64,000 nt of DNA, from contig CAWIXH010000011.1 in assembly GCA_963839995.1 (NCBI GenBank), positions 6,152-70,151 of the forward strand, written 5' to 3'. How positions within the stretch are numbered: the first letter of the stretch is position 1; each line of letters begins with the position of its first letter. The position numbers and the translations under genes were made by a program. Positions 10,373 through 31,061 of this stretch are shown piece after piece. Below the pieces are notes generated by a model. It was given only the letters and a program-made list of their open reading frames with translations. It had not been told where the DNA came from and did not search any database. The stretch comes from an uncultured Actinomycetota bacterium (GTDB lineage Bacteria; Actinomycetota; Actinomycetes; Mycobacteriales; Jatrophihabitantaceae).

Positions 10373-10675
10373 GCTTACATAATGCAAGCATCGAGCAGGG
10401 ACGGCAAGTCGGCAACCCGCGTCCGACGCAAGCAACGAACACAGCTCAATACTGAGCGAGCACCGGTGTCCCATAACAACGGCGTCGCCAGCCGCCGAGT
10501 TCGCTGCAAGACGTGTCCCCGATTCGGCGGTACGGCTCGATCGCGTGATCACGGTCGGCGACGAGCTGGGCGTTCGAGCTGACGCTGGTTCTACGGTCGT
10601 CTCATCATTCGTTCTGCTGGGGCGCGGTCGCCTCTGCGGGTTCCGGGCCCTGGCCCGGTGCTGTGGAGGTGCCCG

Positions 10676-11607
10676 ATGACCGATTCAACCGTGCAGAGAT
10701 CAACGACCGCGGTGGCCATTCCGGTGGAGCCGCTGTTCAGCGGTGACGAACGGGCCGCGCTGGTCGGGTTCTTGGCTGGCTACTCCGGCCAGACCCGCGC
10801 CGCGTACACCCTAGATCTGCGCCAGTACACCTCCTGGTGTGCGAGCCACGGGCTGCACCTGTTCGCCGCGAAGCGGGCGGACATTGGGTGCTACGCCCGC
10901 GACCTCGAGGCGCGTGGTCGGGCCCGGGCGACGATCGCGCGGAGGTTGTGCACGGTGTGCGGGTTCTACCGCTACGCCGTCGAGGAAGACCTGTTGGATC
11001 ACTCCCCCGCCGCGCATGTGCGTCGGCCGCGGCTGGACTACGAATCGCACGCCACCGCGCTCGACCGGAACGAGGTCGGCGGCCTGCTGGTTGCCGCCGG
11101 ACTCGGCAAGCCGGTCGAGCACGCCCTGATCTCGCTGCTCATCCTGAACGGGCTGCGGATCGGCGAAGCGCTCGGCGCGAACATCGAAGCACTGGGTAGC
11201 GAGCGCGGACACCGCACCCTGACGGTGCTGCGCAAGGGCGGCAAGATCGTCACCATCCCGCTCGCCCCGCGCACCGCGCGGGCCATCGACCTGACCGTTG
11301 GGGAGCGGGTCGAGGGACCGATCTTCCTGCGCAGCGACGGGCAGCGGATGGACCGGCACGCCGCCTCCCGCATCGTGGCCGCGCCGCGAAGAAGGCTGGC
11401 CTCGGCAACAAGCGGATCTGCCCGCACACGCTGCGGCATGCGTTCATCACCGCCGCCCTGGACGCCGGTGTCCCGCTGCGCGACGTGCAAGAAGCCGCCT
11501 CGCACGCCGATCCGCGCACCACGATGCGTTACGACCGCGCCCGCGCCTCCCTCGACCGGCACGCCATCTATGTCGTCGCCGCCTACCTGGCCGGCGCGGC
11601 CCGCTGA
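10676..11607 (+). pseudogene. XerC/D-like tyrosine integrase with a 1-nt frameshift near 11379
   Basis: GGAGG at 10665-10669 and ATG at 10676. N-terminal SAM-like domain and the catalytic-domain start are in frame 1. The remainder, KKAGLGNKRICPHTLRHAFITAALDAGVPLRDVQEAASHADPRTTMRYDRARASLDRHAIYVVAAYLAGAAR*, is in the next frame, with its stop at 11605-11607. Confidence 0.8.
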
Positions 11608-11722
11608 TCCGTGCCCTGCTGGTCGGCGGCCTGCGACGAGCAGCTTGCGGCCGACCAGGCTGACACGACATCGGCGCGGGTATGAGGTTTACCGCATATG
11701 CTGTTGGTGCTATGTTGGTCTG

Positions 11723-12124
11723 GTGCTGATCGACTGGTCCGCCGAGTTCGACCTTTGGCTGGACCGGCTGGTCGAGCGAGCCGACGGCGGCGATGCGGCC
11801 GCCGGGACGCAGCTGGATCTGGTCTACGCCGAACTGGAGTATCTGCAGGAATTGAAGGAGGCGCCCGGTGAGGACACCGCGACGCTCAAACGCGTCCGGC
11901 AGTCCCGCAACAACCCGGTGTGGCGGGTCGCCCACCCGTTCCGGGCAGGTATCGCGGTCCGCCTCATCGTCTGGTTCCCGCCCGAGCGCCCCGACAACGT
12001 CGTGGTGGTCCTGTTCGCCGGCGACAAGGCGACCATGGGCGACGTGTTCTACGACAGCGTCGGTACCCGCGCCGATGCCGCGATCGCCAGCTATCGGATG
12101 CACAGCGAAGGAGAAACCCCATGA
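11723..12124 (+). CDS. Putative RelE/HigB-like toxin of a type II toxin-antitoxin pair
   Basis: GTG at 11723. VLIDWSAEFDLWLDRL...NPVWRVAHPFRAGIAVRLIVWFPPERPDNVVVVLFAGDKATMGDVFYDSVGTRAD. ATGA overlap with the following XRE gene. The family assignment is from memory only. Confidence 0.5.
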   Translation: MLIDWSAEFDLWLDRLVERADGGDAAAGTQLDLVYAELEYLQELKEAPGEDTATLKRVRQSRNNPVWRVAHPFRAGIAVRLIVWFPPERPDNVVVVLFAGDKATMGDVFYDSVGTRADAAIASYRMHSEGETP

Positions 12125-12540: not shown

Positions 12541-13270
12541 ATGAGCGAACTGTTCGTGGCGCTCAACCCGGACACACCGATTCGCGCGGTTGCCGTACTT
12601 GCTGCGGCTCCCGCTCGGTGACGGGATGATCTTCCGCACGTCCGGGACCTGGTAGCCCACCAAAGCTCTCTACTGCTATCCGGTCGGCGCCGAGGAGTGG
12701 CCGGCCGAGCCGAAGATCGTCGAACGCGTTCCGGTGCGCTCCTGCGCCCGACGCGGCGCCGCGATCGACCTGGTGCTCGACCGTGGTCGGAAGAATCGCT
12801 GACAGATCGTGTTCACCACCGCTCGCGGCCGCGACGCGGTGTTCTGGCAATCGCCACGCACCCGAAAGCAAGCCCGCCCGAACGTCACCACGCCGGCGGC
12901 TCGCGCCGCCGGCATCGCCAAGCTCGACATCCTCGTCGACACCCGCGAGCAGTACGGCTACCGCTTCCCCACCCAGCAGGTCGCCACCGTTAAGCGGGCG
13001 CTGCCCTGCGGCGACTACGGCATCAGCATCGACGGCCGACTCGTCGCGGCGGTGGAGCGCAAGTCACTGCCCGACCTCGTCTCCAGCCTGCTCAACGGCA
13101 AACTGCGCGCAGCGGTCGTGGTCGAGGACCACTACTCGCAGATCTCCAAACTCAACTGGGTGCGGCCCGTGCTCGTCGCCGACGGCATCGCCGAACTGCA
13201 GGTGCGCTGGCCCAACGTGCCGATCGCCTTCGCCGAGACCCGACAACTGGCCGAGGAATGGACCTACCGT
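12541..13270 (+). pseudogene. ERCC4-nuclease-domain gene, 5' part: frameshift near 12575, in-frame TAG at 12653 and TGA at 12800, then cut by the RIT element
   Basis: MSELFVALNPDT (ATG 12541), then LPYLLRLPLGDGMIFRTSGTW*PTKALYCYPVGAEEWPAEPKIVERVPVRSCARRGAAIDLVLDRGRKNR*QIVFTTARGRD...LVDTREQYGYRF...GDYGI...AVERKSLPDLVSSL...AEEWTYR. Confidence 0.75.
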
Positions 13271-13376
13271 TATTACTCCGATTCCCGGGTTATTCCGATG
13301 TCGGCTCCTTCGCGCGTGTGATGGGCCTGCTGGGCTGGGATGACGGACTCGCGGAGCTGGCGCCTGTCGGAATAAA
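13271..13376. repeat. RIT left terminal inverted repeat (106 bp)
   Basis: tattactccgattcccgggttattccgatgtcgg...cctgtcggaataa matches the reverse complement of 20651-20756 with 3 mismatches by manual alignment. It holds TTATTCCGA and its inverse about 70 bp apart. Confidence 0.85.
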
Positions 13377-13472
13377 CCAGAGCGTCGGTTGCTCGCCTGG
13401 GACTTCTTCCCTGATTTTCTGCGCCCATGGTGATGGTGCCGCCATGTCCGTCCGGACCGGCGGTTCACCGGA

Positions 13473-14716
13473 ATGGAAGGACGTGCCATGGGGTCGATGG
13501 TGTCCGGGCTGGCTGAAGCCGTGCTCGGCGTGGCTGAGGGTGTGGGCTTGTCGAGCGACACGCTCGCTCGCTACGGCAAGTGCTGCGAGGCGGTCGTGGA
13601 GTTCTGCGACCAGCGGGACGTCGACGTGTTGTCAGTCAGGGTGGTCGAGGAGTTCGTCGCGTGCCAGGACGAGCGTGCGCGCCGCGGTGAGACCGGACGG
13701 AACAGGCGGAACGCTCTGGTGAGGTCAGCCCGCATGATGCTCGAGTTCCAGAGAACCGGTGCGGTCGCCTGGCGGGTGATGAGTCCGGGCCCTGATCTGA
13801 GCGAGAGCTCCTGTGAAGTCCTGGAACAGTTCGCCGCTGCAGCTGGCCTGGCTGTGGCCCGGGGATCGGTGAGACTGCTGGCCGGCGAGATTCGCCTCTT
13901 CCTGGTCTATCTCGACCGGATCGGCCGGGATGATGTCGGCGCGGTCACGGTCGAGGACGTCCGGGGGTTCATGGTCGAGATGGCGCCAAGGCGGCCTGCC
14001 GGCATGGGCAACGTGGTGTGGTCGCTGAAGAGGTTCTTCGCCTTCCTCAACGTCGCCGGGCTCAGCGACGTCCGCGTCGACGGCCTGCTCGCGTTTGCCG
14101 CGCCGCGGCGGGTACGTGCGCTGCCGTGCTTCACCCGTGAGGAGACCGACCGTCTGCTCGAGGGATCGAGACCGAGACCCCCTGCGGGAAGAGGGACTAC
14201 GCGATGGTATCGCTGGCGGTCTCGACCGGGCTGCGCTGCTGCGACATCGTGGCACTGCGCCTGGAGGAAATCGACTGGCACCGCGACGAGATCCGGCTGG
14301 TGCAGGCCAAGACATCCAAGCCGCTGGTGCTGCCGCTGCCAGCGCCGGCAGGCAACGCTGTCGCTGAGTGGATCTTGCACGGTCGACCTGACTGTGACGC
14401 CACGGAGGTGTTCGTCCGGCTCCAGGCGCCGTTCGTGAAGCTGGGGAACTCGACAGGCTCGACGCTCATGCGCCGCCGCCTGACCCGGGCCGGCATCGAT
14501 CACGTGGCCGGCGACGGCAAGTCGTTCCATGCCCTGCGGCGCACCGCCGGGACAAGACTCATCGAGTCCGGGGCGGGGCTGCCGCTGGCCGCGCAGATCC
14601 TGGGCCATGCCCGCATCGATTCCTCCCGCCGCTACTTCGCTTTGGCCAGCGAGCAGCTGCGCCAGTGCTGCCTGCCGCTGCAGGAGTTCGCCTGCATCAA
14701 GGAGGGGCTGCGGTGA
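13473..14716 (+). pseudogene. ritA: RitA-type tyrosine recombinase with a 1-nt frameshift near 14163 (GGG run)
   Basis: Frame 1 reads as far as ...TREETDRLLEG. It then continues in the next frame as IETETPCGKRDYAMVSLAVSTGLRCCDIVALRLEEIDW...FHALRRTAGTRLIESGAGLPLAAQILGHARIDSSRRYF. Confidence 0.75.
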
Positions 14717-15504
14717 GCACGTTCACCAGCAATTTCGCGCCCCACATCCAGGCGATGCTCGAATGGCGAACCTCGCTGGGACACAGCCTGCGTGACATGA
14801 GCAACGCCATGGCGAGTTTCGACAGGTTCTGCTCATCGCATCGCCCCAGCGAGACGGTCTTGACCCAGGAACTGGCGACCGCGTGGTGCCAGGACACGGC
14901 GACGGGCACGTGGGGCGCCTACCGCAGCCGCGCGGTCCGTGAGTTAGGCAAGTACCTCCAGCTGACAGGCGTGGATGGGTTCGTCGTGCCCTCCACATGG
15001 ATCTCCAGGCCGACCCGCGGCCTGCCGCACATGTTCACCGATATCGAGCTGGCCGCCTTCTTCAAGGCCGCCGACTGCGTCGACGCCGAGTACCGCAGCC
15101 CATTCCGCGAGTACACGATCCCGGTCATCTTCCGGCTGATTCTCAGCGCGGGACTACGCCCGCCCGAGGCCCGCCGCCTGCACCGCCACGACGTTGATGC
15201 CGACAACGCGATGGAGTGCTCCCCGGCCTGGCTCATCGCCAGCTACCACCGCTGCTGCGAGCGTGCCGGCGGGATCGCGCCTGGCTCAACCCCGTACACG
15301 CTGCGGCACAACTACGCCACTCGCACCCTGATGCGGTGGGTCGAAGAAGGCAAGGACATCGGCGCCTGGCTGCCATACCTGTCTGCCTACATGGGACACC
15401 AGAAGTACTGCTCGACGGCGTGGTACGTCCATCTGCTGCCCGAACGCCTCGCGGCAACCGGCCTGACCAGCGCGGCCGGGATCATCCCGGCGGTGGCCTC
15501 GTGA
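14713..15504 (+). CDS. ritB: RitB-type tyrosine recombinase; the ORF is intact but seems to lack about 35 residues (the beta-hairpin/Lys region)
   Basis: GTG at 14713 overlaps the ritA TGA. The catalytic Arg (SAGLRPPEA), HxxR (TLRHNYATR) and GH..Y (YMGHQKYCSTAWYVH) are present, but only about 40 residues separate DVD from RH. Confidence 0.65.
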   Translation: MSTFTSNFAPHIQAMLEWRTSLGHSLRDMSNAMASFDRFCSSHRPSETVLTQELATAWCQDTATGTWGAYRSRAVRELGKYLQLTGVDGFVVPSTWISRPTRGLPHMFTDIELAAFFKAADCVDAEYRSPFREYTIPVIFRLILSAGLRPPEARRLHRHDVDADNAMECSPAWLIASYHRCCERAGGIAPGSTPYTLRHNYATRTLMRWVEEGKDIGAWLPYLSAYMGHQKYCSTAWYVHLLPERLAATGLTSAAGIIPAVAS

Positions 15505-16409
15505 ACACCCGCCGGGAGGCTGCGGACAGCTTCTACCGGCACCTTCGCCAGTGGTTCACCGCGTTCCTTCCCCGCCAGCGCGGCGCAGCCGACAACACGA
15601 TCACCTCGTGCCGCCAGACCTGGAACATGCTGTTGGGCTACGTCGCCGGACATCACCACGTCGCAATCGAGAAGGTCACGTTCACGATGGTCGACCGGGT
15701 CACCGTCACCGGGTTCCTCGACCACATGCGGAGCACGAGGTCGTGGACGGCCACGACCTGCAACCAGCGCCTGGCATGCATCCGGTCGTTCTTCGCCTAC
15801 GCGGCGTCCGCCGAGCCGTCCCTCGCGATCTATCTCGCCGATCTCGCCGCCATCCCGAGGCTCAAAGGCCCAGCCGCGGCACCCGTGAAATACATGAGCA
15901 CCGACGCGGTCGCGGCGCTGCTCGCCGTCCCGGACCCGGGCACCCGGATCGGGCTGCGCGATCAGTTCTTCATGATCCTCATGTATGACCTGGCTGCCCG
16001 CGACGCCGAGATGCTCGCCATGAACCTCGCCGACATCGACACCAGGCGGCTCACCGTGGACCTGCTCGGGAAAGGCTCCAAACCAAGGCGTCTCCCCATC
16101 ACCAGCGAGACCGCCCAGCACTTCGGCCGCTACACCGCCGTGTTCCACCCCAGCCCGGAACCGGCGACCCCGATGTTCTACACCGTCCGTAGTCATCGTC
16201 TGACCCGGATGTCCGACGACAACGTCGCCAGGTTCATGCGCCAGCACGCCGCCACCGCCAAGACGAGATGTCCCGACATCCCTACCCGGGTCCACCCGCA
16301 CATGCTCAGGCACTCGCGGGCGATGCATCTCTACCGAGCCGGCATGCCCCTGGCCCTGCTCACCGAGTGGCTCGGGCACGCCGACCCCGAGACCACGCTC
16401 ATCTACGCG
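15501..16409 (+). pseudogene. ritC: RitC-type tyrosine recombinase, 5' 303 codons, interrupted after ...LGHADPETTLIYA
   Basis: GTG at 15501 overlaps the ritB TGA. As it stands the ORF runs into the inserted element and ends at 16472 with the tail NPRELHQMHDPNSALRQLVA. Confidence 0.85.
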
Positions 16410-16422
16410 AACCCTCGGGAAT

Positions 16423-16544
16423 TGCATCAGATGCATGATCCGAATTCGGCACTCCGGCAGTTGGTCGCCTGAAACACGTCTCGCGCCTGCTGGATATTCG
16501 GGCTTCGGGAGTGTCGGCTTGATCGTTTGATCCCGTCTGATGCA
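16423..16544. repeat. Left-end inverted TGCATCAGA / TCTGATGCA sites (candidate recombinase-binding sites)
   Basis: ttgcatcagatgcatgatc lies at 16422-16440 and gatcccgtctgatgcaggat at 16529-16548. Both blocks are conserved in the diverged sister copy, whereas the spacer between them is not. Confidence 0.5.
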
Positions 16545-17690
16545 GGATATGCCCACCAACTGGAGCTGGGGGTCGCGTTGCGGCGGGTGGGTTTGGCGGG
16601 CGCGGCGAGCGCCGAGCTGGTCGACGGGGTTCGGCAGCTGCGGCCGGAGGATGCGATGGTCGAGGCGATGTTGCGGGGCTGGCAGGCGCAGCAGGTAGCG
16701 CGTGGCCTGCGCGCGGAGACCGTCGGTTACCGGCAGCGGCTGGTGCGCCGGTTCATGGCCTTCACCAACGAGTACCCGTGGCAGTGGCGGCCGGGGCACG
16801 TGGACGAGTGGACGTTGATGTTGACCGCGGAGCGGCATCTGGCGGCGTCGACGATCCGTAACTACCAGACCGAGCTGCGGTTGTTCAGCGAGTACGTGTG
16901 CGACGGACGGTATGGCTGGGCGGCCGCGTGCGAGACGGAGTTCGGGCCGGGGGTGCATCCGGTACCGATCTGCCACGAGTGGAACACGATCACGCACCTG
17001 AACGAGTACGAGGGCGACCCGGAGGCCCGGCCGTTCACCCGGGCCGAACTGCAACGCTTTCTGGACTACGCCGATGAGCAGGTCGACCGGGCGGCGCAGG
17101 CCAGACGTAAGGGCGCGTTGGCGGCCTACCGGGACGCCACGCTGTTCAAGGTGGTCTACGGGTGGGGACTGCGGCGCACCGAGACCTCGAAGCTGGATCT
17201 GGCCGACTGGGGCCGCAACCCGGCTGCGCCGGAGTTCGGCCGGTTCGGGATGCTGCACGTCCGCTACGGCAAGGCGGTGCGCGGCCAGCCACCCCGGCGG
17301 CGCAACGTGCCCTCGGTGTTCGGCTGGGCAGTGGAGGCGGTGAGCGATTACGTCGAGAACATCAGGCCCCGTTTCGGGGCGGTAGATCATCCGGCGTTGT
17401 GGGTCACCGAACGCGGTGGCCGGATCAAACCCGCAGAGATCAACGCCCGGTTCGTTGCCTACCGTGATGCGCTCGGGCTGCCCCGCGAGCTGACGCCCCA
17501 TTCGCTCAGGCACTCGTTCGTGACCCACCTTACGGAGAACGGGGCCGACCGCCGGTTCATCCAGGAGGCCGTCGGACATCGCTGTGACACGTCCACGGCG
17601 ATCTATACCCACGTGTCCGGGGACTTCATGAACACCGCGCTGCGCAAGGCACTCACCCCGGCCTTCGAGCCAGATGCCCAGGTTCGGTAA
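16527..17690 (+). CDS. Tyrosine integrase of the element (387 codons as listed; true start uncertain)
   Basis: RRTETSKLDL (Arg), HSLRHSFVTHL (HxxR) and VGHRCDTSTAIYTH (His..Tyr). Confidence 0.85.
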   Translation: MIPSDAGYAHQLELGVALRRVGLAGAASAELVDGVRQLRPEDAMVEAMLRGWQAQQVARGLRAETVGYRQRLVRRFMAFTNEYPWQWRPGHVDEWTLMLTAERHLAASTIRNYQTELRLFSEYVCDGRYGWAAACETEFGPGVHPVPICHEWNTITHLNEYEGDPEARPFTRAELQRFLDYADEQVDRAAQARRKGALAAYRDATLFKVVYGWGLRRTETSKLDLADWGRNPAAPEFGRFGMLHVRYGKAVRGQPPRRRNVPSVFGWAVEAVSDYVENIRPRFGAVDHPALWVTERGGRIKPAEINARFVAYRDALGLPRELTPHSLRHSFVTHLTENGADRRFIQEAVGHRCDTSTAIYTHVSGDFMNTALRKALTPAFEPDAQVR

Positions 17691-17699
17691 GGAGATTCG

Positions 17700-18026
17700 A
17701 TGACACGCAAACTGGATTACCGGTGGAACCTGCGGCAGGTAATGGCCACCCAGGGCATGTTCGCCACCACCGACCTGATCGACCCGCTCGCCGCTCGCGG
17801 GATCCGGCTGTCCTCCAGCCAGGTCTACCGGCTGGTCGTCGAGCGGCCGGAGCGGCTGAGCTTGAAGATCCTCATGGCGTTGCTGGACATCATGGACTGC
17901 TCGATGGACGAGCTGATCGAACCAGTCGCCGCTGGCTCGCCGGCCCGCAAGCGCCGTGCGGCCGGCGGCTCGGAGACCGGGATCGGGACGCTGCGCCCGA
18001 AGCCGGCGCGCATCACCCGCAGCTGA
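17700..18026 (+). CDS. Small Cro/C1-type HTH protein of the element
   Basis: MTRKLDYRWNLRQVMATQGMFATTDLIDPLAARGIRLSSSQVYRLVVERPERLSLKILMALLDIMDCSMDELIE. Confidence 0.75.
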   Translation: MTRKLDYRWNLRQVMATQGMFATTDLIDPLAARGIRLSSSQVYRLVVERPERLSLKILMALLDIMDCSMDELIEPVAAGSPARKRRAAGGSETGIGTLRPKPARITRS

Positions 18027-18029
18027 TCG

Positions 18030-20477
18030 ATGCCGACCAGCGTGATGGTGCCCGAGGTACTCGCCGACCCGATCGGTGTGGTCGTCGACATGGTCGCCGG
18101 CGCCGAGCCCGCGCTGGATCGCGCCGTCATCGAGCAGGCGGCCACCGAGGTCGCCGGCGGTCGGGCGAAGCGCCGCCGGCTCGCTCAGGCGCTGCTGGAG
18201 CGGCCCGCCGTGCTCACCGACGGCCGCTCGCCCGCCCCACGCGTTGTCGGTGACCTGCTGGTGAACCTGCGGACCGCGGGCGCGATGAGCATCGCGGCGC
18301 CGGTCTGCGCGGGCTGCGGCAAGCAGCTTCGTACGCTGCAGCGACGCGGAACCGACTGGTACTGCGCGGTTTGCAGCCCCCGGGCGACCGGGTGCGCTGC
18401 CTGTGGCCAGAACCGGATCGTGGTCACCCTCGACCGCGAGGGCCGGCCCCGCTGTTCGCGCTGCCCCGATGCCGATGGCCGGGATCCGTTGCTCACCCTG
18501 ATCACGGTGATCACGACCCTGGAACCGTCGCTGCCAGTCGAGGACATCACCACCGCTATCGGGCGCGTGTTCTCCAGGCCCAGCTATCTGCAGCGCCTGG
18601 CCTGGGCCATCGAGGACCGACCTGAGCTGCTCACCGGCCAAAGCGCGCAGGCACCGATGCACGGCGTGCTGCGGCTCATCGACGAACTTCGCGAGGCCGG
18701 CGCGCAAGCCATCATCCGACCGGCCTGCCCGCAGTGTCAGCGGATCGTACGACTGCACCGGCGCATCAACGGTCAATGGCACTGCCGCAACTGCCTGGCC
18801 AAGTCCCGCGCCCAGCCCTGCTCCCGCTGCGGTGTCATCCGCGAGGCGGCCGCCCGGGACGAGCATGGCCGGCCGCTGTGTCCCAACTGCCTGGTCGCCG
18901 AGCCCGCCAACCAGGAAACCTGTGTCGGATGCGGGCGACGTCGCCGGGTCCACACCCGCACTCCGGGCGGGCCGTCGTGTCAGGCATGCCGACCGATCAG
19001 CGTGGTGGACTGCTCGATCTGCGGCCGTCACGCGCCGGGCGTGATCTCCACCGCGACCGGGCAACCGTGGTGCTACGCCTGCAGCAAACGCCGGGCCCGC
19101 TGCGTCGGCTGCGGGGCCATACGGTTGGTGCGTGGCGGAAAGCTCGCCGCCCCGCTCTGCGCCACCTGCACCCGCCCTGACCCGTCGTTCTGGCACACCT
19201 GCCCCGGCTGCGGCGAACACACCGTGCACCGGCGACGCACCTGCGGCCGCTGCGCGCTTCGACAGCGGCTCGAGCAGCTGCTCGGCTGCGACGAGGACGG
19301 CGGTATCCACCCACGCCTGCGAGCGTTGCACGAACACCTCGCCGGCCACGAACGTCCAGACACCGTGCTGACCTGGCTCAACAAGGACAACGCGTCGGCG
19401 ATCTTGGGTGAACTCGCCACCGGGCAACGTCCACTGACCCACGCCGGGCTCGACGAACTGCCCGATTCCAAGCCGCTGCAGCACCTGCGCAGCGTCCTGG
19501 TTGCCGTCGGTGCACTGCCTGCCCGCGACGAGCAGATGACCCGACTCGAGAACTGGATCACGGCCACCATCACCGTGCGCGAGGACGCCGATGAACGACA
19601 ACTGCTGCACCGCTACGCCACCTGGCACGTGCTGCGCAGACTCCGGCGGCGGGTGCGCGAGGCCAGCACCACCAACGGGCAGGCCATCGCAGCTCGCCGC
19701 AAGATCACTGCCGCGATCGCCTTGCTCGACTGGCTGGAAACCCAGGACCGAACCCTGGCCACGGCCGGGCAAGGCGACCTCGATACCTGGCTGGCCAGCG
19801 GCACACGCTCGGCTACCGACGCGGGGAACTTCGTCCGCTGGGCTCGCAAGCAGAAACTCACCCGACTGGAGTTCGCCGCCACCCGATGGCACGGGCCGAC
19901 CGGCGTGATCGACACCGAGACCCGCTGGTCCCAGGCCCGCCGGCTCCTGCACGACGACACCCTCCAGCCCGAGGGCCGCGTCGCCGGGTTGCTCGTGCTC
20001 CTCTACGCGCAAACCGCGGCAGCGATCAGCCGGCTCACCCTCGACCACGTCCAGACCAGCAACAGCGAGACCCGCCTCCGACTCGGACGCGAACCCGTCA
20101 CCCTGCCCGAACCAGTCGACGCCCTGGTCCGGGAACTGGTCAACACTCGTCGCGGTCACGCTGTCCTCGGCGACCAAGGAACCTCACGGTGGCTGTTCCC
20201 CGGCGGCCGCCCCGGACACCCCATCAGCGCCGCCCGCCTCGCCGAACGACTCCGCGAACTCGGCATCCAGGCCGGGCCATCCCGCTCGGCCGCACTGTTC
20301 CAACTCGCCACCGACCTGCCCGCCGCCATGCTCGCCCGCATGCTCGGCATCCACATAGCCGTCGCCGCCACCTGGCAACGCGCCGCCGCCGGTGACTGGA
20401 CCAACTACGCCGCCGAGATCAGCCGACGACCAGCGTCCGCCCCGGCCGTCGAGCTGGTCGCCGATGATCAACAGTGA
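18030..20477 (+). CDS. 815-aa protein: eight CxxC..CxxC zinc-ribbon-like modules plus a C-terminal integrase-like domain
   Basis: CAGCGK..CAVC, CAACGQ..CSRC, CPQCQR..CRNC, CSRCGV..CPNC, CVGCGR..CQAC, CSICGR..CYAC, CVGCGA..CATC, CPGCGE..CGRC. The C-terminus reads ...AISRLTLDHV...PSRSAALFQLATDLPAAMLARMLGIHIAVAATW...WTNYAAE. Confidence 0.8.
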   Translation: MPTSVMVPEVLADPIGVVVDMVAGAEPALDRAVIEQAATEVAGGRAKRRRLAQALLERPAVLTDGRSPAPRVVGDLLVNLRTAGAMSIAAPVCAGCGKQLRTLQRRGTDWYCAVCSPRATGCAACGQNRIVVTLDREGRPRCSRCPDADGRDPLLTLITVITTLEPSLPVEDITTAIGRVFSRPSYLQRLAWAIEDRPELLTGQSAQAPMHGVLRLIDELREAGAQAIIRPACPQCQRIVRLHRRINGQWHCRNCLAKSRAQPCSRCGVIREAAARDEHGRPLCPNCLVAEPANQETCVGCGRRRRVHTRTPGGPSCQACRPISVVDCSICGRHAPGVISTATGQPWCYACSKRRARCVGCGAIRLVRGGKLAAPLCATCTRPDPSFWHTCPGCGEHTVHRRRTCGRCALRQRLEQLLGCDEDGGIHPRLRALHEHLAGHERPDTVLTWLNKDNASAILGELATGQRPLTHAGLDELPDSKPLQHLRSVLVAVGALPARDEQMTRLENWITATITVREDADERQLLHRYATWHVLRRLRRRVREASTTNGQAIAARRKITAAIALLDWLETQDRTLATAGQGDLDTWLASGTRSATDAGNFVRWARKQKLTRLEFAATRWHGPTGVIDTETRWSQARRLLHDDTLQPEGRVAGLLVLLYAQTAAAISRLTLDHVQTSNSETRLRLGREPVTLPEPVDALVRELVNTRRGHAVLGDQGTSRWLFPGGRPGHPISAARLAERLRELGIQAGPSRSAALFQLATDLPAAMLARMLGIHIAVAATWQRAAAGDWTNYAAEISRRPASAPAVELVADDQQ

Positions 20478-20515
20478 AGGTATTCAGACAGTTGGAAAAC
20501 CTGACTCCGCCAGAG

Positions 20516-20641
20516 AACGCCGACACCGAGATGAAACGCCATGCCCTCGAAAAGGCAAACAGCACCGGCCCGCAACCCCCTCCGGCCCCGTTGTGGCACA
20601 ACCGCGAGGACATCATCCAGCGCTTGTGCGGACTCAAGTAG
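20516..20641 (+). pseudogene. ritC: RitC 3' remainder (41 codons plus stop)
   Basis: NADTEMKRHALEKANSTGPQPPPAPLWHNREDIIQRLCGLK* follows directly on ...TTLIYA in the same codon phase. Confidence 0.8.
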
Positions 20642-20650
20642 TGACACCGG

Positions 20651-20756
20651 CTTATTCCGACAGGCGCCAGCCACGCGAGCCCGTCATCCCAGCCCAGCAG
20701 GCCCATCACACGCGCGAAGGAGCCGACATCGGAATAACCCGGGAATCGGAGTAATA
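20651..20756. repeat. RIT right terminal inverted repeat (106 bp)
   Basis: It is the reverse complement of 13271-13376, with 3 mismatches. Confidence 0.85.
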
Positions 20757-20786
20757 CCAGTTATTCCGAGATCGGAATAACTGGTA
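20755..20786. repeat. 14-bp-stem palindrome at the outer right edge of the RIT element
   Basis: taccagttattccg agat cggaataactggta. It holds two more TTATTCCGA-type 9-mers and has no counterpart at the left end. Confidence 0.85.
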
Positions 20787-22888: not shown

Positions 22889-24145
22889 TCATCTGGCGGC
22901 CGGGTTCACCCAGGCCCAGTGCGCGAAGTACTGCGGCCGCTCTCGGGCCGCGCGACTCATCGCCTGCATGGACTTCTTCCAAGCGCGGAGCCGCTTGTAC
23001 TTGTTCATGGTCCACCGCAGCAGGTAGGTGTTGATGCGGCGGAGCAAGGGATACAGCGCTGACCGGTAGAAGGCGCCGTAATACGCCATCCATCCCCGCA
23101 CGATCGGGTTGATCACCCGGGCGAGATCCTCACCGGTGCTGCCGGTGCGGCGGTGCAGCCGCCAGGATCGCACCCGCGCGCTGATCTTCTTCAGGGCATC
23201 GTTGCTGATGGCCGGGAGGAACGACACGAACTTCGCACCGTCCTTCCGCCGGGCCGAGCGTGGCCGGAAGGTGAACCCCAAGAACGTGAACGACGTGTGC
23301 TCGAACTCGCCACGCCGGTTGCTGTCCTTGCAGTAGACGATCCGGGTCTTGGCCGGGTGCAGCCGCAGCCCAACCTCGTCCATCCGCTCATGCAGCGCGG
23401 CCAAGACCTTCTCGGCCTGCCACCGAGTAGCGCAGTGCAGGACCGCGTCGTCGGCGTACCGCTCGAACTCGACCATCGGAAACTCCCGAGACAGCCAGGT
23501 ATCGAACGCGTAGTGCATGAACAGATTCGCCAGCACGGGCGAAACCGCTGAACCCTGATGGGTTCCCCGGTCGCGCGCCTGCAACGTCCCGTCGGGCAGC
23601 TGTAACGGCGCAGCCAGCCACCGCGTCACGTACAGCATCACCCAGCGGGCATCGGTGTGCGCCTGCACGGCCTTGATCACCAGGTCCCACCGGACGCTGT
23701 CGAAGAACTTCTGGATGTCCAAATCGATCACCCAGTTGCTCGTCCAGCAGCGTTTCCGGCAGACCCCGACCGCGTCCAGCGCGGAACGCCCAGGCCGGTA
23801 GCCGTAGGAGTCAGGATGGAACACCGGTTCCACCCTGGCCTCCAGATGCGCGGCTACCACGGTCTGCGCGACCCGATCCGCGACGGTAGGCACCCCTAAG
23901 ATTCGGGTGCCCGCGCCGTGCGGCTTGGGTACCTCCACCGCTCGCACCGGGGGCGGGAAGTACGTCCCCGACGACATCCGATTCCAGATCTTGTACAGGT
24001 TGTTCTTCAGATCCGTCTCGAACTCCGCCAGCGACTGCCCGTCCACTCCCGGTGCGCCCTGATTCCCTTTCACCTTGAGCCAGGCGCCCCACACCTCAAC
24101 CTTCGAGATGCGAAACGGCTTGCCGGATGACTTCAACTCGTCCAT
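22889..24145 (-). CDS. Group II intron reverse transcriptase/maturase (no endonuclease domain seen)
   Basis: GGGAGGAG RBS, then ATG at 24145. RT motifs: GAPGVDG, RILGVPTVADRVAQ, YGYRPGRSA, QGSAVSPVLANLFMHYAFD, YADDAV. Maturase motif: INPIVRGWMAYYG. Confidence 0.9.
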   Translation of the reverse strand: MDELKSSGKPFRISKVEVWGAWLKVKGNQGAPGVDGQSLAEFETDLKNNLYKIWNRMSSGTYFPPPVRAVEVPKPHGAGTRILGVPTVADRVAQTVVAAHLEARVEPVFHPDSYGYRPGRSALDAVGVCRKRCWTSNWVIDLDIQKFFDSVRWDLVIKAVQAHTDARWVMLYVTRWLAAPLQLPDGTLQARDRGTHQGSAVSPVLANLFMHYAFDTWLSREFPMVEFERYADDAVLHCATRWQAEKVLAALHERMDEVGLRLHPAKTRIVYCKDSNRRGEFEHTSFTFLGFTFRPRSARRKDGAKFVSFLPAISNDALKKISARVRSWRLHRRTGSTGEDLARVINPIVRGWMAYYGAFYRSALYPLLRRINTYLLRWTMNKYKRLRAWKKSMQAMSRAARERPQYFAHWAWVNPAAR

Positions 24146-25280
24146 CGGGCTCCTCCCAGAACCTCTGGTTGACCAAACGAACACAGCCACGGACAACCCG
24201 GCGCCTTCGCTCCACCCCCGTTACAGGGGCTTCACCACTACTACGCGCCGGTCCGCCAGCATGTCCCGCGCCGGTACTCACGTCCCGGCCAGCCAAGATC
24301 AATCCCTGTCTGGCCGGGCGCTCCCTGTCGCCATGCCGCTGACGCACGGCAGTGTCGGGACACGCCTTCTCACGTTCCACACGAGAGCAGCAGACCGGGC
24401 TCACGCCGCCTCCACACCGGACACCGCCAGGCCAGTAAACGGGCACCCGCCTGGCTCATCCCGGGATACACACCAAACCCCGGTTTCGATGTCGTCTGAA
24501 GAGTTTCGATGCTTCAACAACGGTCGTCTTCCCGGCCCCCACCTGACACCTCTCGGGCGCCTTCTCCTCATCGCTCACCACGACGGTCTTCAGCCAACGC
24601 AGCATGAGGCGGTTTGAAGCCTCCCCCCGCAGGGCGGCTCCGAAGGGCCATACCTTCATCTCTCGTGCAGCACCGCATCAAGAAACTCGGCTACCTACAC
24701 GGCAAGCCCCTCTCTGCGTTCGTGACACACGGCATGGCTCATTCCCTCCAACCTGGCGTGTTGTGGCGTGTGGTGCGTGGAGATCTGCCATCGGGCCCGA
24801 ACAGGGTCGCCCTTCACGGCCACAGCGCGGGCGCCACGAGCGCTCAGAGCCGCTGCCCGGCCTGCAGAATCCGACGACGCGAGGTTCCCCACGACCGCAG
24901 ACGGTTGACTCGACCATCAGAAACCCCCAGTTTCCGCGCGGCCGCCAGATCTCACCCGTCATGGAGACCCGCGCACACACACCTGATACCGGTCGAGGCT
25001 GTCGATTCGTTTCCGCACCCGGGTCGGCCAGGCAGGGTTGCTGCCCATTCGTCAACCGCCTGGTCCACGCGCCTGCCGACTCGTTGCGGCCTTCGAAGCG
25101 AGCGCCAGTCGCCGGCCGTGGCGTCGTCGCGGCCAGGTTTGCCGAGCCGGTCACCTGGCCGGCGCGATCGAGCAGGTCGCCCGGTTTGGTTGCCGAGCTC
25201 CTATTGCAGACCGCGGAGGTGACCATGATCCTGGGCCGGTCACGTTCAGACGTGGCAGCGTTTCGGCCGCGGCACCGTTG

Positions 25281-27584: not shown

Positions 27585-27752
27585 TCAGGCTTGCTGGGGC
27601 AGCGAGCGACGGCCGAGCCGCCGGCGCAGTTCGGGGTTCTCGCCGTGGGCGGCCTCCAGCGCCTGGTTGAGGCTGCGGATCTCGTCGCGGTGGCGGCGTT
27701 TGAGCTCGGCGAGTTGGGCGGTGAGGGTGCGCGTCGGGGTTACCGCGCATCA
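27585..27752 (-). pseudogene. Possible remnant of the small coiled-coil third gene of a Tn554-like trio
   Basis: TLTAQLAELKRRHRDEIRSLNQALEAAHGENPELRRRLGRRS follows the TnpB-like stop. The ATG overlapping that stop is in another frame. This call is weak. Confidence 0.25.
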
Positions 27753-28236
27753 GTCGTGCTCCTGCTTGTCGGCGAGGGCGTCGGTGCGAGCCTCGACCCC
27801 GGCGCCGCGGATCGCCCGCGCGCTGCCGTCGGCGAGGCGGGTGTGTTCGAGGGTGAGGATGACGCGGCCGAGTGCATCGTGTTCCTGGCGTCGTCCGGCC
27901 AGCCACACGTTGTCCTCGCTCATCTCCCGCCCGGTGCGGGCAAGGAACACAGCGTTACGTTCGGTGATCAGGTTTGCGGTGCGGTCGAGCTGGGTGCGCA
28001 GCTCGGGAAGGAAGCTGGCGTCGGTGGCGAACTTGTCACAGGTCAGGCACGAGTTGCCCTTCTGACAGACCTGGCGGGGTGGCAGCAGACACCAGCCGTT
28101 GGGCAGGATCCGGTCAGTGCGCCGGTCCAGTTCGAGCATGTCGTAGAGGTCTCGTGGGTCGATGTCCAGGTCGCGGGCGTCAGCGGTGATCTTGCGATAG
28201 CGCAGGAACTCCGCCTCGGCGGTGGACTGCAGCGTC
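27750..28236 (-). pseudogene. Tn554 TnpB-like tyrosine recombinase, 3' part (post-tyrosine extension with a Cys motif)
   Basis: TLQSTAEAEFLRYRKITADARDL...ILPNGWCLLPPRQVCQKGNSCLTCDKFATDASFLPELRTQLDRTANLI. It starts directly at the right end of element copy 2. Confidence 0.55.
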
Positions 28237-28274
28237 CTCTGGCGGAGTCAGGTTTTCCAACTGTCTGAATACCT

Positions 28275-30722
28275 TCACTGTTGATCATCGGCGACCAGCT
28301 CGACGGCCGGGGCGGACGCTGGTCGTCGGCTGATCTCGGCGGCGTAGTTGGTCCAGTCACCGGCGGCGGCGCGTTGCCAGGTGGCGGCGACGGCTATGTG
28401 GATGCCGAGCATGCGGGCGAGCATGGCGGCGGGCAGGTCGGTGGCGAGTTGGAACAGTGCGGCCGAGCGGGATGGCCCGGCCTGGATGCCGAGTTCGCGG
28501 AGTCGTTCGGCGAGGCGGGCGGCGCTGATGGGGTGTCCGGGGCGGCCGCCGGGGAACAGCCACCGTGAGGTTCCTTGGTCGCCGAGGACAGCGTGACCGC
28601 GACGAGTGTTGACCAGTTCCCGGACCAGGGCGTCGACTGGTTCGGGCAGGGTGACGGGTTCGCGTCCGAGTCGGAGGCGGGTCTCGCTGTTGCTGGTCTG
28701 GACGTGGTCGAGGGTGAGCCGGCTGATCGCTGCCGCGGTTTGCGCGTAGAGGAGCACGAGCAACCCGGCGACGCGGCCCTCGGGCTGGAGGGTGTCGTCG
28801 TGCAGGAGCCGGCGGGCCTGGGACCAGCGGGTCTCGGTGTCGATCACGCCGGTCGGCCCGTGCCATCGGGTGGCGGCGAACTCCAGTCGGGTGAGTTTCT
28901 GCTTGCGAGCCCAGCGGACGAAGTTCCCCGCGTCGGTAGCCGAGCGTGTGCCGCTGGCCAGCCAGGTATCGAGGTCGCCTTGCCCGGCCGTGGCCAGGGT
29001 TCGGTCCTGGGTTTCCAGCCAGTCGAGCAAGGCGATCGCGGCAGTGATCTTGCGGCGAGCTGCGATGGCCTGCCCGTTGGTGGTGCTGGCCTCGCGCACC
29101 CGCCGCCGGAGTCTGCGCAGCACGTGCCAGGTGGCGTAGCGGTGCAGCAGTTGTCGTTCATCGGCGTCCTCGCGCACGGTGATGGTGGCCGTGATCCAGT
29201 TCTCGAGTCGGGTCATCTGCTCGTCGCGGGCAGGCAGTGCACCGACGGCAACCAGGACGCTGCGCAGGTGCTGCAGCGGCTTGGAATCGGGCAGTTCGTC
29301 GAGCCCGGCGTGGGTCAGTGGACGTTGCCCGGTGGCGAGTTCACCCAAGATCGCCGACGCGTTGTCCTTGTTGAGCCAGGTCAGCACGGTGTCTGGACGT
29401 TCGTGGCCGGCGAGGTGTTCGTGCAACGCTCGCAGGCGTGGGTGGATACCGCCGTCCTCGTCGCAGCCGAGCAGCTGCTCGAGCCGCTGTCGAAGCGCGC
29501 AGCGGCCGCAGGTGCGTCGCCGGTGCACGGTGTGTTCGCCGCAGCCGGGGCAGGTGTGCCAGAACGACGGGTCAGGGCGGGTGCAGGTGGCGCAGAGCGG
29601 GGCGGCGAGCTTTCCGCCACGCACCAACCGTATGGCCCCGCAGCCGACGCAGCGGGCCCGGCGTTTGCTGCAGGCGTAGCACCACGGTTGCCCGGTCGCG
29701 GTGGAGATCACGCCCGGCGCGTGACGGCCGCAGATCGAGCAGTCCACCACGCTGATCGGTCGGCATGCCTGACACGACGGCCCGCCCGGAGTGCGGGTGT
29801 GGACCCGGCGACGTCGCCCGCATCCGACACAGGTTTCCTGGTTGGCGGGCTCGGCGACCAGGCAGTTGGGACACAGCGGCCGGCCATGCTCGTCCCGGGC
29901 GGCCGCCTCGCGGATGACACCGCAGCGGGAGCAGGGCTGGGCGCGGGACTTGGCCAGGCAGTTGCGGCAGTGCCATTGACCGTTGATGCGCCGGTGCAGT
30001 CGTACGATCCGCTGACACTGCGGGCAGGCCGGTCGGATGATGGCTTGCGCGCCGGCCTCGCGAAGTTCGTCGATGAGCCGCAGCACGCCGTGCATCGGTG
30101 CCTGCGCGCTTTGGCCGGTGAGCAGCTCAGGTCGGTCCTCGATGGCCCAGGCCAGGCGCTGCAGATAGCTGGGCCTGGAGAACACGCGCCCGATAGCGGT
30201 GGTGATGTCCTCGACTGGCAGCGACGGTTCCAGGGTCGTGATCACCGTGATCAGGGTGAGCAACGGATCCCGGCCATCGGCATCGGGGCAGCGCGAACAG
30301 CGGGGCCGGCCCTCGCGGTCGAGGGTGACCACGATCCGGTTCTGGCCACAGGCAGCGCACCCGGTCGCCCGGGGGCTGCAAACCGCGCAGTACCAGTCGG
30401 TTCCGCGTCGCTGCAGCGTACGAAGCTGCTTGCCGCAGCCCGCGCAGACCGGCGCCGCGATGCTCATCGCGCCCGCGGTCCGCAGGTTCACCAGCAGGTC
30501 ACCGACAACGCGTGGGGCGGGCGAGCGGCCGTCGGTGAGCACGGCGGGCCGCTCCAGCAGCGCCTGAGCGAGCCGGCGGCGCTTCGCCCGACCGCCGGCG
30601 ACCTCGGTGGCCGCCTGCTCGATGACGGCGCGATCCAGCGCGGGCTCGGCGCCGGCGACCATGTCGACGACCACACCGATCGGGTCGGCGAGTACCTCGG
30701 GCACCATCACGCTGGTCGGCAT
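28275..30722 (-). CDS. 815-aa zinc-ribbon-rich integrase-like protein (copy 2)
   Basis: The translation is identical to 18030-20477. Confidence 0.8.
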   Translation of the reverse strand: MPTSVMVPEVLADPIGVVVDMVAGAEPALDRAVIEQAATEVAGGRAKRRRLAQALLERPAVLTDGRSPAPRVVGDLLVNLRTAGAMSIAAPVCAGCGKQLRTLQRRGTDWYCAVCSPRATGCAACGQNRIVVTLDREGRPRCSRCPDADGRDPLLTLITVITTLEPSLPVEDITTAIGRVFSRPSYLQRLAWAIEDRPELLTGQSAQAPMHGVLRLIDELREAGAQAIIRPACPQCQRIVRLHRRINGQWHCRNCLAKSRAQPCSRCGVIREAAARDEHGRPLCPNCLVAEPANQETCVGCGRRRRVHTRTPGGPSCQACRPISVVDCSICGRHAPGVISTATGQPWCYACSKRRARCVGCGAIRLVRGGKLAAPLCATCTRPDPSFWHTCPGCGEHTVHRRRTCGRCALRQRLEQLLGCDEDGGIHPRLRALHEHLAGHERPDTVLTWLNKDNASAILGELATGQRPLTHAGLDELPDSKPLQHLRSVLVAVGALPARDEQMTRLENWITATITVREDADERQLLHRYATWHVLRRLRRRVREASTTNGQAIAARRKITAAIALLDWLETQDRTLATAGQGDLDTWLASGTRSATDAGNFVRWARKQKLTRLEFAATRWHGPTGVIDTETRWSQARRLLHDDTLQPEGRVAGLLVLLYAQTAAAISRLTLDHVQTSNSETRLRLGREPVTLPEPVDALVRELVNTRRGHAVLGDQGTSRWLFPGGRPGHPISAARLAERLRELGIQAGPSRSAALFQLATDLPAAMLARMLGIHIAVAATWQRAAAGDWTNYAAEISRRPASAPAVELVADDQQ

Positions 30723-30725
30723 CGA

Positions 30726-31052
30726 TCAGCTGCGGGTGATGCGCGCCGGCTTCGGGCGCAGCGTCCCGATCCCGGTCTCCGAGCCGCCGGCCGCACGGCG
30801 CTTGCGGGCCGGCGAGCCAGCGGCGACTGGTTCGATCAGCTCGTCCATCGAGCAGTCCATGATGTCCAGCAACGCCATGAGGATCTTCAAGCTCAGCCGC
30901 TCCGGCCGCTCGACGACCAGCCGGTAGACCTGGCTGGAGGACAGCCGGATCCCGCGAGCGGCGAGCGGGTCGATCAGGTCGGTGGTGGCGAACATGCCCT
31001 GGGTGGCCATTACCTGCCGCAGGTTCCACCGGTAATCCAGTTTGCGTGTCAT
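30726..31052 (-). CDS. Small HTH protein (copy 2)
   Basis: The translation is identical to 17700-18026. Confidence 0.75.
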   Translation of the reverse strand: MTRKLDYRWNLRQVMATQGMFATTDLIDPLAARGIRLSSSQVYRLVVERPERLSLKILMALLDIMDCSMDELIEPVAAGSPARKRRAAGGSETGIGTLRPKPARITRS

Positions 31053-31061
31053 CGAATCTCC

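Follow-up and report, generated by a model that had tools for sequence, protein, structure and literature searches.

The DNA analysed here (the window) is a stretch of 64,000 nucleotides from contig CAWIXH010000011.1 of an uncultured Actinomycetota bacterium of the Jatrophihabitantaceae. It carries two copies of a 4,106-bp repeat, which we call E, together with the left end of a sister element, E3, which is roughly 80% identical to E. Repeat analysis of the window revealed a 4.1-kb inverted duplication, and direct comparison of the two copies (4,106 nt each) gave 0 mismatches, with a different gene interrupted by each copy. The 37-nt left tip of the element (AACCCTCGGGAATTGCATCAGATGCATGATCCGAATT) occurs exactly at three places in the window, 16410 (+), 32342 (-) and 33536 (-), and was found 0 times in shuffled window sequence. 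At all three places the tip abuts a tyrosine-recombinase gene, one codon past the TAC that encodes the catalytic Tyr of the box II motif (GH-x8/9-Y). The features of E are as follows, in window coordinates (ORF, open reading frame).

16410-20515 (+): E copy 1, same sequence as 28237-32342 (-); its ends match the ends conserved across the family
28237-32342 (-): E copy 2, the identical second copy
16410-16446 (+): left tip of E; its first 22 nt (16410-16431) are AACCCTCGGGAATTGCATCAGA and hold the motif TGCATCAGA at 16423-16431
16410-16472 (+): in-frame tail contributed by E to the truncated RitC, NPRELHQMHDPNSALRQLVA, followed by a stop codon
16536-16544 (+): TCTGATGCA, the tip motif in inverted orientation, at the start annotated for ORF1, which it overlaps; putatively a second site bound by the recombinase
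16527-17690 (+): ORF1, XerC/D-like tyrosine recombinase, 387 aa
17700-18026 (+): ORF2, Cro/C1-type helix-turn-helix (HTH) protein, 108 aa
18030-20477 (+): ORF3, 815 aa, with eight CxxC..CxxC zinc ribbons and a degenerate tyrosine-recombinase-like C-terminal domain
20479-20515 (+): right end of E, GGTATTCAGACAGTTGGAAAACCTGACTCCGCCAGAG, conserved in 36 loci, the last 4-5 nt depending on lineage

Copy 1 lies in the ritC gene of a recombinase-in-trio (RIT) element spanning 13266-20761, the RIT element being the host and E the guest. The RIT element was identified with RitA, RitB and RitC of Rhodococcus opacus pR1CP1 as tblastn queries (73-92% identity); RitA aligned in two pieces in different frames. 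The 5' part of ritC matches Pfam Phage_integrase (E=1.1e-23) and is 85% identical to intact RitC. The parts of this host are listed below.

13266-13378: left terminal inverted repeat of the RIT element, 113 nt, 95% complementary to 20649-20761
13488-14716 (+): ritA, frameshifted near 14165-14192, with an empty box II (LGHARIDSSRRYF)
14713-15504 (+): ritB, intact, matched by tblastn over residues 1-312 (73% identity), with an empty box II (MGHQKYCSTAWYVH)
15501-16409 (+): 5' part of ritC, ending in box II LGHADPETTLIYA (16372-16409), with the Tyr codon TAC at 16404-16406
20516-20641 (+): 3' remainder of ritC, NADTEMK...GLK, then a stop codon
20649-20761: right terminal inverted repeat, pairing with 13266-13378

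Copy 2 belongs to a composite locus on the minus strand, in which E has entered the recombinase gene of E3 (ORF1') and E3 in turn adjoins a TnpB-like tyrosine-recombinase gene.

32343-33536 (-): left 1,194 bp of E3, with its own tip at 33500-33536 and ORF1' at 33386-32343, cut by E copy 2 after ..AIYT
33537-33881 (-): 5'-truncated fragment of the gene for a large TnpB-like tyrosine recombinase, ending in LGHLTPTMSMVYA at the E3 tip (PF00589, E=2.4e-12)
27750-28235 (-): 3' remainder of the TnpB-like gene (TLQSTAEAEFLRYRK...CLTCDKF...), starting after the right end of copy 2 and one extra G

The E3 piece is 79.6% identical to the first 1.2 kb of E, and ORF1' matches Pfam PF00589. The DNA beyond the right end of copy 2 (from 28235 downward) is the remainder of the TnpB-like gene and not of the sister recombinase gene, and the rest of E3 is missing. 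What is missing of E3 may have been lost through a deletion from one right end to the other; alternatively, a 5.3-kb unit made of the E3 tip, the truncated ORF1' and E may have moved as a whole. The initial annotation had counted three independent cases of insertion; the junctions are real, but the cases in the sister recombinase gene and in the TnpB-like gene are parts of this one locus. The third target does end in a recombinase box II according to Pfam, but it is a 5'-truncated fragment rather than a gene. An ORF judged from its sequence to be ABC-transporter ATPase-like (33733-35058, minus strand) runs into this fragment, and the border between the two suggests a further rearrangement.

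The three left junctions read as they were first annotated: ..CTC ATC TAC GCG/AAC CCT in ritC, ..GCG ATC TAC ACC/AAC CCT in ORF1' of E3, and ..ATG GTC TAC GCA/AAC CCT in the TnpB-like fragment, where the slash marks the insertion point. The proposal that this TAC encodes the catalytic Tyr was borne out by the Pfam comparison, as all three upstream peptides match Phage_integrase and each alignment ends at profile position 166 of 172, that is, at the junction. In the alignment of 88 targets from the survey described below, the junction Tyr is one of only three nearly invariant columns. Insertion at this position cuts the target recombinase just after its nucleophile and adds 15-32 codons and a stop.

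The sequence of ritC resumes in frame at 20516 (NADTEMKRHALEK..), runs to a stop at 20639-20641 and aligns to residues 304-345 of intact RitC, as expected of the simple insertion that had been claimed. Uninterrupted orthologues of ritC were found on two Rhodococcus plasmids, R. jostii RHA1 pRHL1 (ATC TAC GCC CAC GCC GAC ACC) and R. opacus pR1CP1 (ATC TAC GCA CAC GCC GAC ACC). Both encode IYAHADTEMK, are read straight through and have no tip, indicating that the tip is the end of an insertion and not the native end of the gene. A copy of E of 99.9% identity was present in a RitB-type gene on a metagenome contig from another sample, with the clean junction AVYL/.../HANLALK, and the element thus occurs at 99.9-100% identity in three unrelated recombinase genes (ritC, the sister ORF1' and the RitB-type gene). 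In most of the approximately 25 complete copies the interrupted frame resumes directly after the right end. The His codon that follows is intact at seven loci (L008, L021, L066, L106, L107, L119 and L123), as in the clean insertion ATC TAC ACC/.../CAT GTC AGT of L119. The direct repeat at the junctions amounts to at most 3 nt (AAC, copy 1) and is lacking in L008, L021, L043 and L119, and the identical core of at least 6-7 bp that classical integrative elements show at both junctions was not seen. The insertions are specific for site and orientation and free of target duplication, with the target frame resuming right after the right end.

To see how general this arrangement was, we scanned one genome per species for exact matches to the 20-nt core of the tip, which yielded at least 114 stretches. 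Nearly all of them came from Actinomycetota (Streptomyces, Kitasatospora, Actinacidiphila, Nocardia, Rhodococcus, Mycobacterium, Pseudonocardia, Micromonosporaceae, Streptosporangiaceae and many metagenome-assembled genomes); a single AT-rich match from Chitinophagaceae was not accompanied by an element and looks like chance. With the window and two plasmids added, 120 junctions were available, and in 109 of them the upstream frame could be read; the survey was built in such a way that all recombinase targets are on the strand of the tip. An ending of the form H-x7-10-Y-x was found in 89 of the 109, the ISL3-type ending ..C[RQ]D-x4-6-Y-x in eight, and 12 were grouped as other, at least five and perhaps about seven of the latter being recombinase boxes with a mutated Tyr or His codon (decaying pseudogenes). 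Judged from the 66 nt upstream, approximately 85% of the readable junctions follow the box II of very diverse tyrosine-recombinase genes and end in Y-x. The observation made in the window is thereby confirmed and is far more general than the three cases found there, and its interpretation as insertion after the catalytic-Tyr codon of recombinase genes is supported. Recombinase genes as the target account for these 85% but not for eight insertions in ISL3 DDE transposase genes and three in ordinary genes.

Among 88 upstream peptides, Pfam recognised Phage_integrase in 63 and the ISL3 DDE transposase domain in five, and most of the peptides without a Pfam match are, by motif (GMRxSE, FRRTLAW, His, Tyr), large atypical recombinases. 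The 88 aligned targets fall into 82 clusters at 70% identity, 52 at 50% and 36 at 40%, and the tip is the same behind recombinases with mutual identities of only about 20%. Such diversity of targets, together with the presence of one and the same element in unrelated genes, indicates many independent insertions and not a single inherited event. Members of the family also hit each other's ORF1 (..AIYT/HVS..), which leads to nested arrays (the window, L002, L069, L090, L115 and L119). The ISL3 target motif, HPGxE[VI][IV]CRDRxxxY[AT] directly before the tip, was found in several genera (L013, L017, L052, L054, L057, L081, L100 and L112); at least four of the eight loci hold full-length elements and some others hold remnants, and the three elements from these sites that could be placed in the ORF1 tree occupy two separate positions. 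The ordinary genes hit were those of a beta-lactamase (VHGWLYSNTNYI before the tip), a nonribosomal peptide synthetase (NRPS) condensation domain (GHHPSLRTAFVYD) and a 2'-5' RNA-ligase-like protein (EEHFWPHMSCGYG), and all three happen by chance to encode a His eight residues before the junction Tyr-x (H-x8-Y-x).

All information about the target lies to the left of the insertion point, while the right flank displays only codon bias. Among 111 distinct junctions, positions -6 to -4 are T in 105, A in 103 and C or T in 106; weaker features are ACS-ACS at -18 to -13 and GGN-CAY at -36 to -31. We built a matrix from the recombinase targets with the TAC excluded and used coding-like TAC sites as the null, and in leave-one-out scoring the real targets reached a mean of +18.7 bits versus a mean of -16.4 for the null. 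On this matrix the beta-lactamase, NRPS and RNA-ligase-like targets rank at 4.7%, 1% and 17% of coding-like TAC sites (Fisher combination of the three ranks, by hand, p ~0.004). Target preference partly follows the clades of the element, the GAC-tip clade, for example, being mostly found in G-Y-x boxes, which suggests that the specificity is encoded by the element. These patterns point to recognition of DNA whose sequence is kept from changing, in GC-rich genomes, by the selection acting on the active-site motif, and the target would accordingly be a DNA motif rather than recombinases as such.

The ends of the element were conserved throughout the family. The left end reads (A/G)ACCCTCGGGAATTGCATCAGA, and an inverted copy of TGCATCAGA follows approximately 125 nt further in, at the start of ORF1; this inverted copy is conserved across tip classes (codons 41-46). 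Within the limits of the 20-nt scan, the first 22 nt were the same in 91 of the 111 distinct junctions, and only base 1 varied (G in 19, C in one), with A or G at this base following element clades. The right end consists of GGCATTCnGACAGTT and a further 22 nt, holds a similar motif, GCATTCnGAC, in direct orientation, and closes with ..CCAGAG, ..CCATTA or ..CCGTTA depending on the lineage; the native codon usually comes directly next, and odd first codons occur at a few right junctions. Independent support for these ends comes from several contigs whose first bases are exactly AACCCTCGGG, whose last bases are exactly ..CCAGAG or ..CCATTA, or both, as happens where an assembler meets the border of a repeat. 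The two TGCATCAGA motifs pair in the minimum free energy fold of the left end, but with a z of only -1.07.

The lengths of the tails added to the truncated proteins cluster at 15/16, 20 and 32 codons across the family, and their variation shows no codon periodicity (entropy 0.91, 0.80 and 1.02 at codon positions 1, 2 and 3). Since the variation is aperiodic and the 'stop' at codon 33 is kept even in classes whose frame has already closed, the tail is conserved at the DNA level, and on the same grounds a selected C-terminal fusion peptide is not supported. A sigma-70-like promoter upstream of ORF1 and a terminator were not detected by a scan that was not tuned to actinobacteria and gives a hint only.

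Complete copies range from 4,048 to approximately 5,700 bp. Internally deleted, non-autonomous derivatives with both ends, located at sites of the same type, measure 270-300 bp (L066, L119-L122) or 1.0-1.2 kb (L021, L078). The smaller class consists of mini-elements resembling miniature inverted-repeat transposable elements (MITE-like; L066:1607-1876 and L119:6350-6640, also L120-L122), which are inserted at Tyr+1, retain 130-150 nt of the left end and 45 nt of the right end, and have an internal segment in common. In one near-identical copy of E (L123, ENA ERZ25039533) a 1,240-bp insertion is located at the start of ORF2 (1447-2687), and the element is closely followed by genes with matches to DDE_Tnp_1 and DDE_Tnp_ISL3. 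At L101:5258-5300 the right end is followed by the 3' part of the ORF3 of another element (..TLARMLGVHIK..) and not by the gene of the left junction, so this locus is rearranged or nested.

The three genes of E are co-oriented, and the trio is conserved together with the ends across hundreds of copies. ORF1 begins 117 nt from the left end, so that the tyrosine integrase gene adjoins one end of the element. Its product matches Pfam PF00589 (E=3e-20), a PHROG integrase and NCBIfam XerC (E=1e-34, below the equivalog cut-off), and by inspection the catalytic set is complete (GLRRTE, HSLRHS, GH and IYTHV, providing Arg, HxxR, His and Tyr). ORF2 matches Pfam HTH_26 (E=6e-12). For ORF3 no match was obtained in Pfam, NCBIfam, PDB sequences, PADLOC or PHROGs, and a comparison of E with sequenced phages was likewise without a match. 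The eight zinc ribbons of ORF3 (CxxC-x12-18-CxxC, approximately residues 93-408) have cysteines that are invariant in 30 homologues. Residues 662-781 aligned with the recombinase catalytic profile in hhalign (probability 86%, E=5e-6), with the box I Arg replaced by Thr, HxxR lost and the box II His kept. An AlphaFold model of the C-terminal part had a pLDDT of 64.7, and its best Foldseek matches were Cre, XerH and XerD, with E of 0.015 or worse and TM of about 0.22.

Relatives of ORF3 are numerous (more than 1,257 clusters at 90% identity and 5,552 representatives at 50% identity) and were seen on 236 actinobacterial plasmids, whose hosts include Streptomyces, Rhodococcus, Arthrobacter and Mycobacterium. 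They bear no specific family name, and those that are annotated have one of the generic labels 'hypothetical protein', 'site-specific integrase' and 'phage integrase family protein'. Some homologues (P0018, P0025, P0055 and P0112) are approximately 150-200 aa longer and contain nucleotidyltransferase (PF01909, PF18765) or GrpB (PF04229) domains, which could represent cargo or the outcome of gene fusion in members of the family.

Variant tips, AAAGCTCGGG and AACCCCGGGG among them, characterise more distant relatives. A relative on plasmid p1 of Mycobacterium gordonae (L124:733-8588) has the tip AAAGCTCGGGAATTGCATCAGA directly after ..LDLYG in the first gene of a Tn554-like trio (a recombinase, a 719-aa recombinase and DUF6262); here the variant AAAGCTCGGG.. 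still follows LYG of a Tn554-like TnpA. The tip of L124 implies that the exact 20-nt scan missed a part of the family. In the outer element of L002 (4640-4680), in L125 (1-30) and in L126 (1851-1880) the tips are ..GAGTTGCATCAGATGCGGG and AACCCCGGGGAATTGCATC, and the ORF3 products of L125 and L126 are 34-36% identical to that of E. These three tips adjoin non-recombinase sequence, either dprA or a small hypothetical gene ending in ..RGALLLW. Other subfamilies thus seem to have other targets, and variant tips at other sites indicate that specificity evolves within the superfamily.

A 2023 review distinguishes five groups of tyrosine-recombinase transposons: ICE/IME, SE, GInt, RIT and Tn554 (PMC10214605). 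According to the same source, Tn554 is small, has three genes, is strict in site and orientation, and has neither a target duplication nor a long identical core, whereas SEs and GInts encode several proteins, including one with a recombinase fold but without the RHRY residues (Tfp and GinC, respectively) (PMC10214605). In behaviour Tn554 is nearest to E, as both have three genes and insert specifically for site and orientation, with no duplication. However, Tn554, known from Staphylococcus and Enterococcus, encodes two catalytic recombinases, TnpA and TnpB, and TnpC, while E encodes one recombinase, an HTH protein and a zinc-ribbon protein; only ORF1 matches Phage_integrase, so a second RHRY recombinase is lacking. 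The small third protein of Tn554 is TnpC, to which ORF2 of E, a Cro/C1-type HTH_26 protein, may or may not correspond, and Tn554 targets one chromosomal site (att554) whereas E targets a motif of a whole enzyme superfamily. We also saw no pattern at the right junctions that would correspond to the carry-over of about 6 bp of the donor left flank (it would read TAC-NNN) of the Tn554/SE type. Tn554-like trios are themselves targets of relatives of E (L124).

With regard to a putative dead recombinase-fold partner, SEs and GInts are nearest to E, as the C-terminal domain of ORF3 looks like Tfp and GinC. These groups come from Gamma- and Betaproteobacteria, and their core consists of four genes (intA-tfp-intB-srap or ginABCD), two or three of the products being of recombinase type. 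In E and its relatives there are three genes instead of this core of four; E resides in Actinomycetota and encodes an ORF3 with an N-terminal array of eight zinc ribbons; Tfp and GinC are likened to it by description. RIT elements, which consist of only tyrosine-recombinase genes and ends, belong to the same general class as E, but the RIT of the window has three consecutive recombinase genes and 113-nt terminal inverted repeats, and E has landed in its ritC. E lacks the defining gene content of Tn554, SE and GInt.

Several known elements also target mobile elements, such as the 'res hunters' Tn5053/Tn402, IS4321/IS5075 in the inverted repeats of the Tn21 family, and members of the IS1111 family in integron attC sites. 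They resemble E in landing in a conserved functional sequence of another mobile element, which offers a harmless site and a ride. Their targets, however, are cis-acting sites (res, inverted repeats or attC) and their enzymes are DDE or DEDD transposases, whereas E lands in the coding sequence of a rival's enzyme, at the active-site motif, and has a tyrosine recombinase; a DEDD or DDE transposase domain, as expected of the IS1111/IS110 group, was not found in E with Pfam or NCBIfam. Targets that are conserved because they encode the active-site region of an enzyme are used by TnsD of Tn7 at attTn7 and by the homing endonucleases of inteins and group I introns. Like E, these systems rely on a conserved coding target, which many hosts therefore possess. 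Tn7 leaves glmS intact, its insertions being downstream of the gene, and inteins and introns splice out, whereas E truncates its target and is not removed at the RNA or protein level. Within the literature that could be searched, we came across no paper describing either the element itself or its tip or target, in line with the first impression that no family with such an attachment site had been described.

On balance, we consider E to be an autonomous member of an undescribed Actinomycetota family of tyrosine-recombinase transposons or integrative elements of about 4.05-5.7 kb, which recognise the DNA of the recombinase active-site motif (probability about 0.8). The family and its target class would be new, and the chemistry is presumably conventional. 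Insertion takes place between the codons of Tyr+1 and Tyr+2 of box II, co-directionally with the target gene, and the XerC/D-like ORF1 protein with its complete catalytic set would carry out strand exchange at the ends. ORF3 could serve as a partner without catalytic activity that brings the ends together, captures the target or does both, as in the case of Tfp or GinC, and ORF2 as a regulator or directionality factor. The element would read a degenerate motif wholly left of the insertion point, in which TAY at -6 to -4 is almost obligatory, and as selection on the active site fixes this motif in high-GC genomes, every tyrosine-recombinase gene would be a potential landing pad. Having no transfer genes, E presumably travels on the plasmids and elements in which it lands. 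Both the strand-exchange chemistry and the way in which the target is read are what we infer from sequence comparison.

Several observations weigh against this reading. The ISL3 site does not fit the recombinase matrix upstream and shares only C-TAC-GCC, so no single DNA motif explains all targets. Tips occupy three of the nine box II sites in the window; several are empty, that of E's own ORF1 included, and occupancy is far from saturated. The extra G at 28236 puts the right junction of copy 2 one base off. At the right junction of copy 1 the codon is AAC where both intact ritC homologues have CAC, and Asn at the position after Tyr+1 was seen in 0 of 74 unoccupied box II sites in the fetched loci; the AAC, already set aside as ambiguous in the initial annotation, stays so, and it may be left over from the crossover or have arisen by a fortuitous C-to-A substitution, the gene being a pseudogene. 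A core common to the joined ends and the targets was not found by eye, which is unusual for a tyrosine recombinase. Nor was a joint of the right end and the tip (..CCGCCAGAG directly followed by AACCCTCGGG..), as in a circle or a tandem, found in the fetched loci by regular expression or in metagenome contigs, where a missing joint in assemblies is weak evidence against a circular form. Four metagenome matches to this joint were false, as GAC AGT T is the target box II in nested insertions. Finally, the case for a recombinase fold in ORF3 is weak (a model with pLDDT 65, the Foldseek matches and the hhalign probability of 86%), and its part in reading the target is entirely inferred.

It has to be asked whether the shared sequence, instead of ending a mobile element, could be a conserved native terminus (..IY[AT]NPRELHQ..) on the 3' side of certain recombinase genes, or else a cassette prone to recombination. 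The tip is indeed always in frame with the upstream gene and the tail lengths cluster, but intact ritC lacks the tip, the frame resumes about 4.1 kb later in most complete copies, the tip follows recombinases of about 20% identity as well as a beta-lactamase and an NRPS domain, and the tail does not vary in a codon-periodic way. With the empty sites and the resumption of the frame this possibility is already refuted, and we regard its chance as practically nil. Homologous recombination or gene conversion between occupied and empty alleles, that is, a homing process with no site-specific insertion, would account for the frequent presence of elements of one family in several copies of the same host element and for the common nesting. 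It is already contradicted by the identical elements in unrelated genes, since ritC, the RitB-type gene and ORF1', in which these copies lie, share no extended DNA homology around the site, and the targets form 36 clusters even at 40% protein identity; we therefore find it very improbable.

A different concern is that the specificity might be low, with TAC-NNN as the only requirement, and that the bias towards recombinases reflects survivorship in dispensable genes of mobile elements. No feature other than TAY at -6 to -4 is nearly invariant, the ISL3 target has little more in common with the recombinase targets, and a few ordinary genes are hit. However, survivorship cannot explain why approximately 85% of insertions are at one Tyr codon of one superfamily, while other Tyr codons of these genes, other transposase families, intergenic DNA and many dispensable genes are spared; moreover, the matrix separates targets from the null with the TAC excluded, and the non-recombinase targets keep the His at box II spacing. 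This makes the explanation improbable. It is also unlikely that E is moved in trans, with the XerC/D of the host or the recombinase of the target performing strand exchange and ORF1-3 having other roles. The Xer-like nature of ORF1, the missing attP-like junction and the mini-elements, which must be mobilised in trans, would fit such a model, but the conservation of the trio with the ends and the retention of every catalytic residue in ORF1 argue against it. Dozens of recombinase lineages and a DDE transposase as targets leave no single target-encoded enzyme that could act, and the mini-elements are best explained by full-length family members working in trans.

The family-level reading, in which E itself recognises the active-site DNA, can be extended to a more speculative proposal, to which we give well under even odds: that of a 'recombinase hunter' whose ORF3 zinc-ribbon array reads DNA and which acts as a hyperparasite driven by the promoter of its host, disarming and eavesdropping on rivals, with an evolvable specificity. 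The zinc ribbons, mounted on a dead recombinase domain, would read the approximately 35-40 bp that encode GH-x8/9-Y, and ORF3 would position ORF1 to cut three bases past the Tyr codon. The promoter of the truncated gene would then transcribe E, switching it on exactly when the host element tries to move; transcription from the host promoter is suggested by the constantly co-oriented insertion and by the lack of a detected promoter upstream of ORF1. Sub-lineages would have been retargeted to ISL3 transposases, and distant relatives to other genes.

The family would form a sixth group beside the five of the review (PMC10214605), and an abundant one, with at least 114 matches in species-representative genomes. 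Its target is the DNA for the catalytic motif of an enzyme superfamily used by phages, ICEs, plasmids and transposons, which would provide a harmless landing pad in any host with mobile DNA and a vehicle for horizontal transfer. The recombinase of the rival is presumably knocked out or altered. The family offers a concrete case of conflict between mobile elements. It also poses a problem of protein-DNA recognition, in which a degenerate, protein-constrained motif is read with single-nucleotide precision of insertion. Genes interrupted by the family are routinely annotated as ordinary recombinases, and the 22-nt tip can serve as a simple marker for such genes and for nested elements, including those on industrial Streptomyces and Rhodococcus plasmids.

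The window contains further mobile DNA. A recombinase gene at 10658-12124, or 10583-12121 by another delimitation, extends across two frames and has an empty box II (SHADPRTTMRYD). The two copies of E enclose an ORF for a group II intron reverse transcriptase/maturase (RVT_1 and GIIM domains, 22889-24196, minus strand), one more mobile element within these 15 kb. An inverted pair of IS256-type elements (Transposase_mut, 475 and 473 aa, 89-95% identical) is located at 44408-46036 and 49571-51200 and flanks approximately 3.5 kb, an arrangement that resembles a composite transposon.

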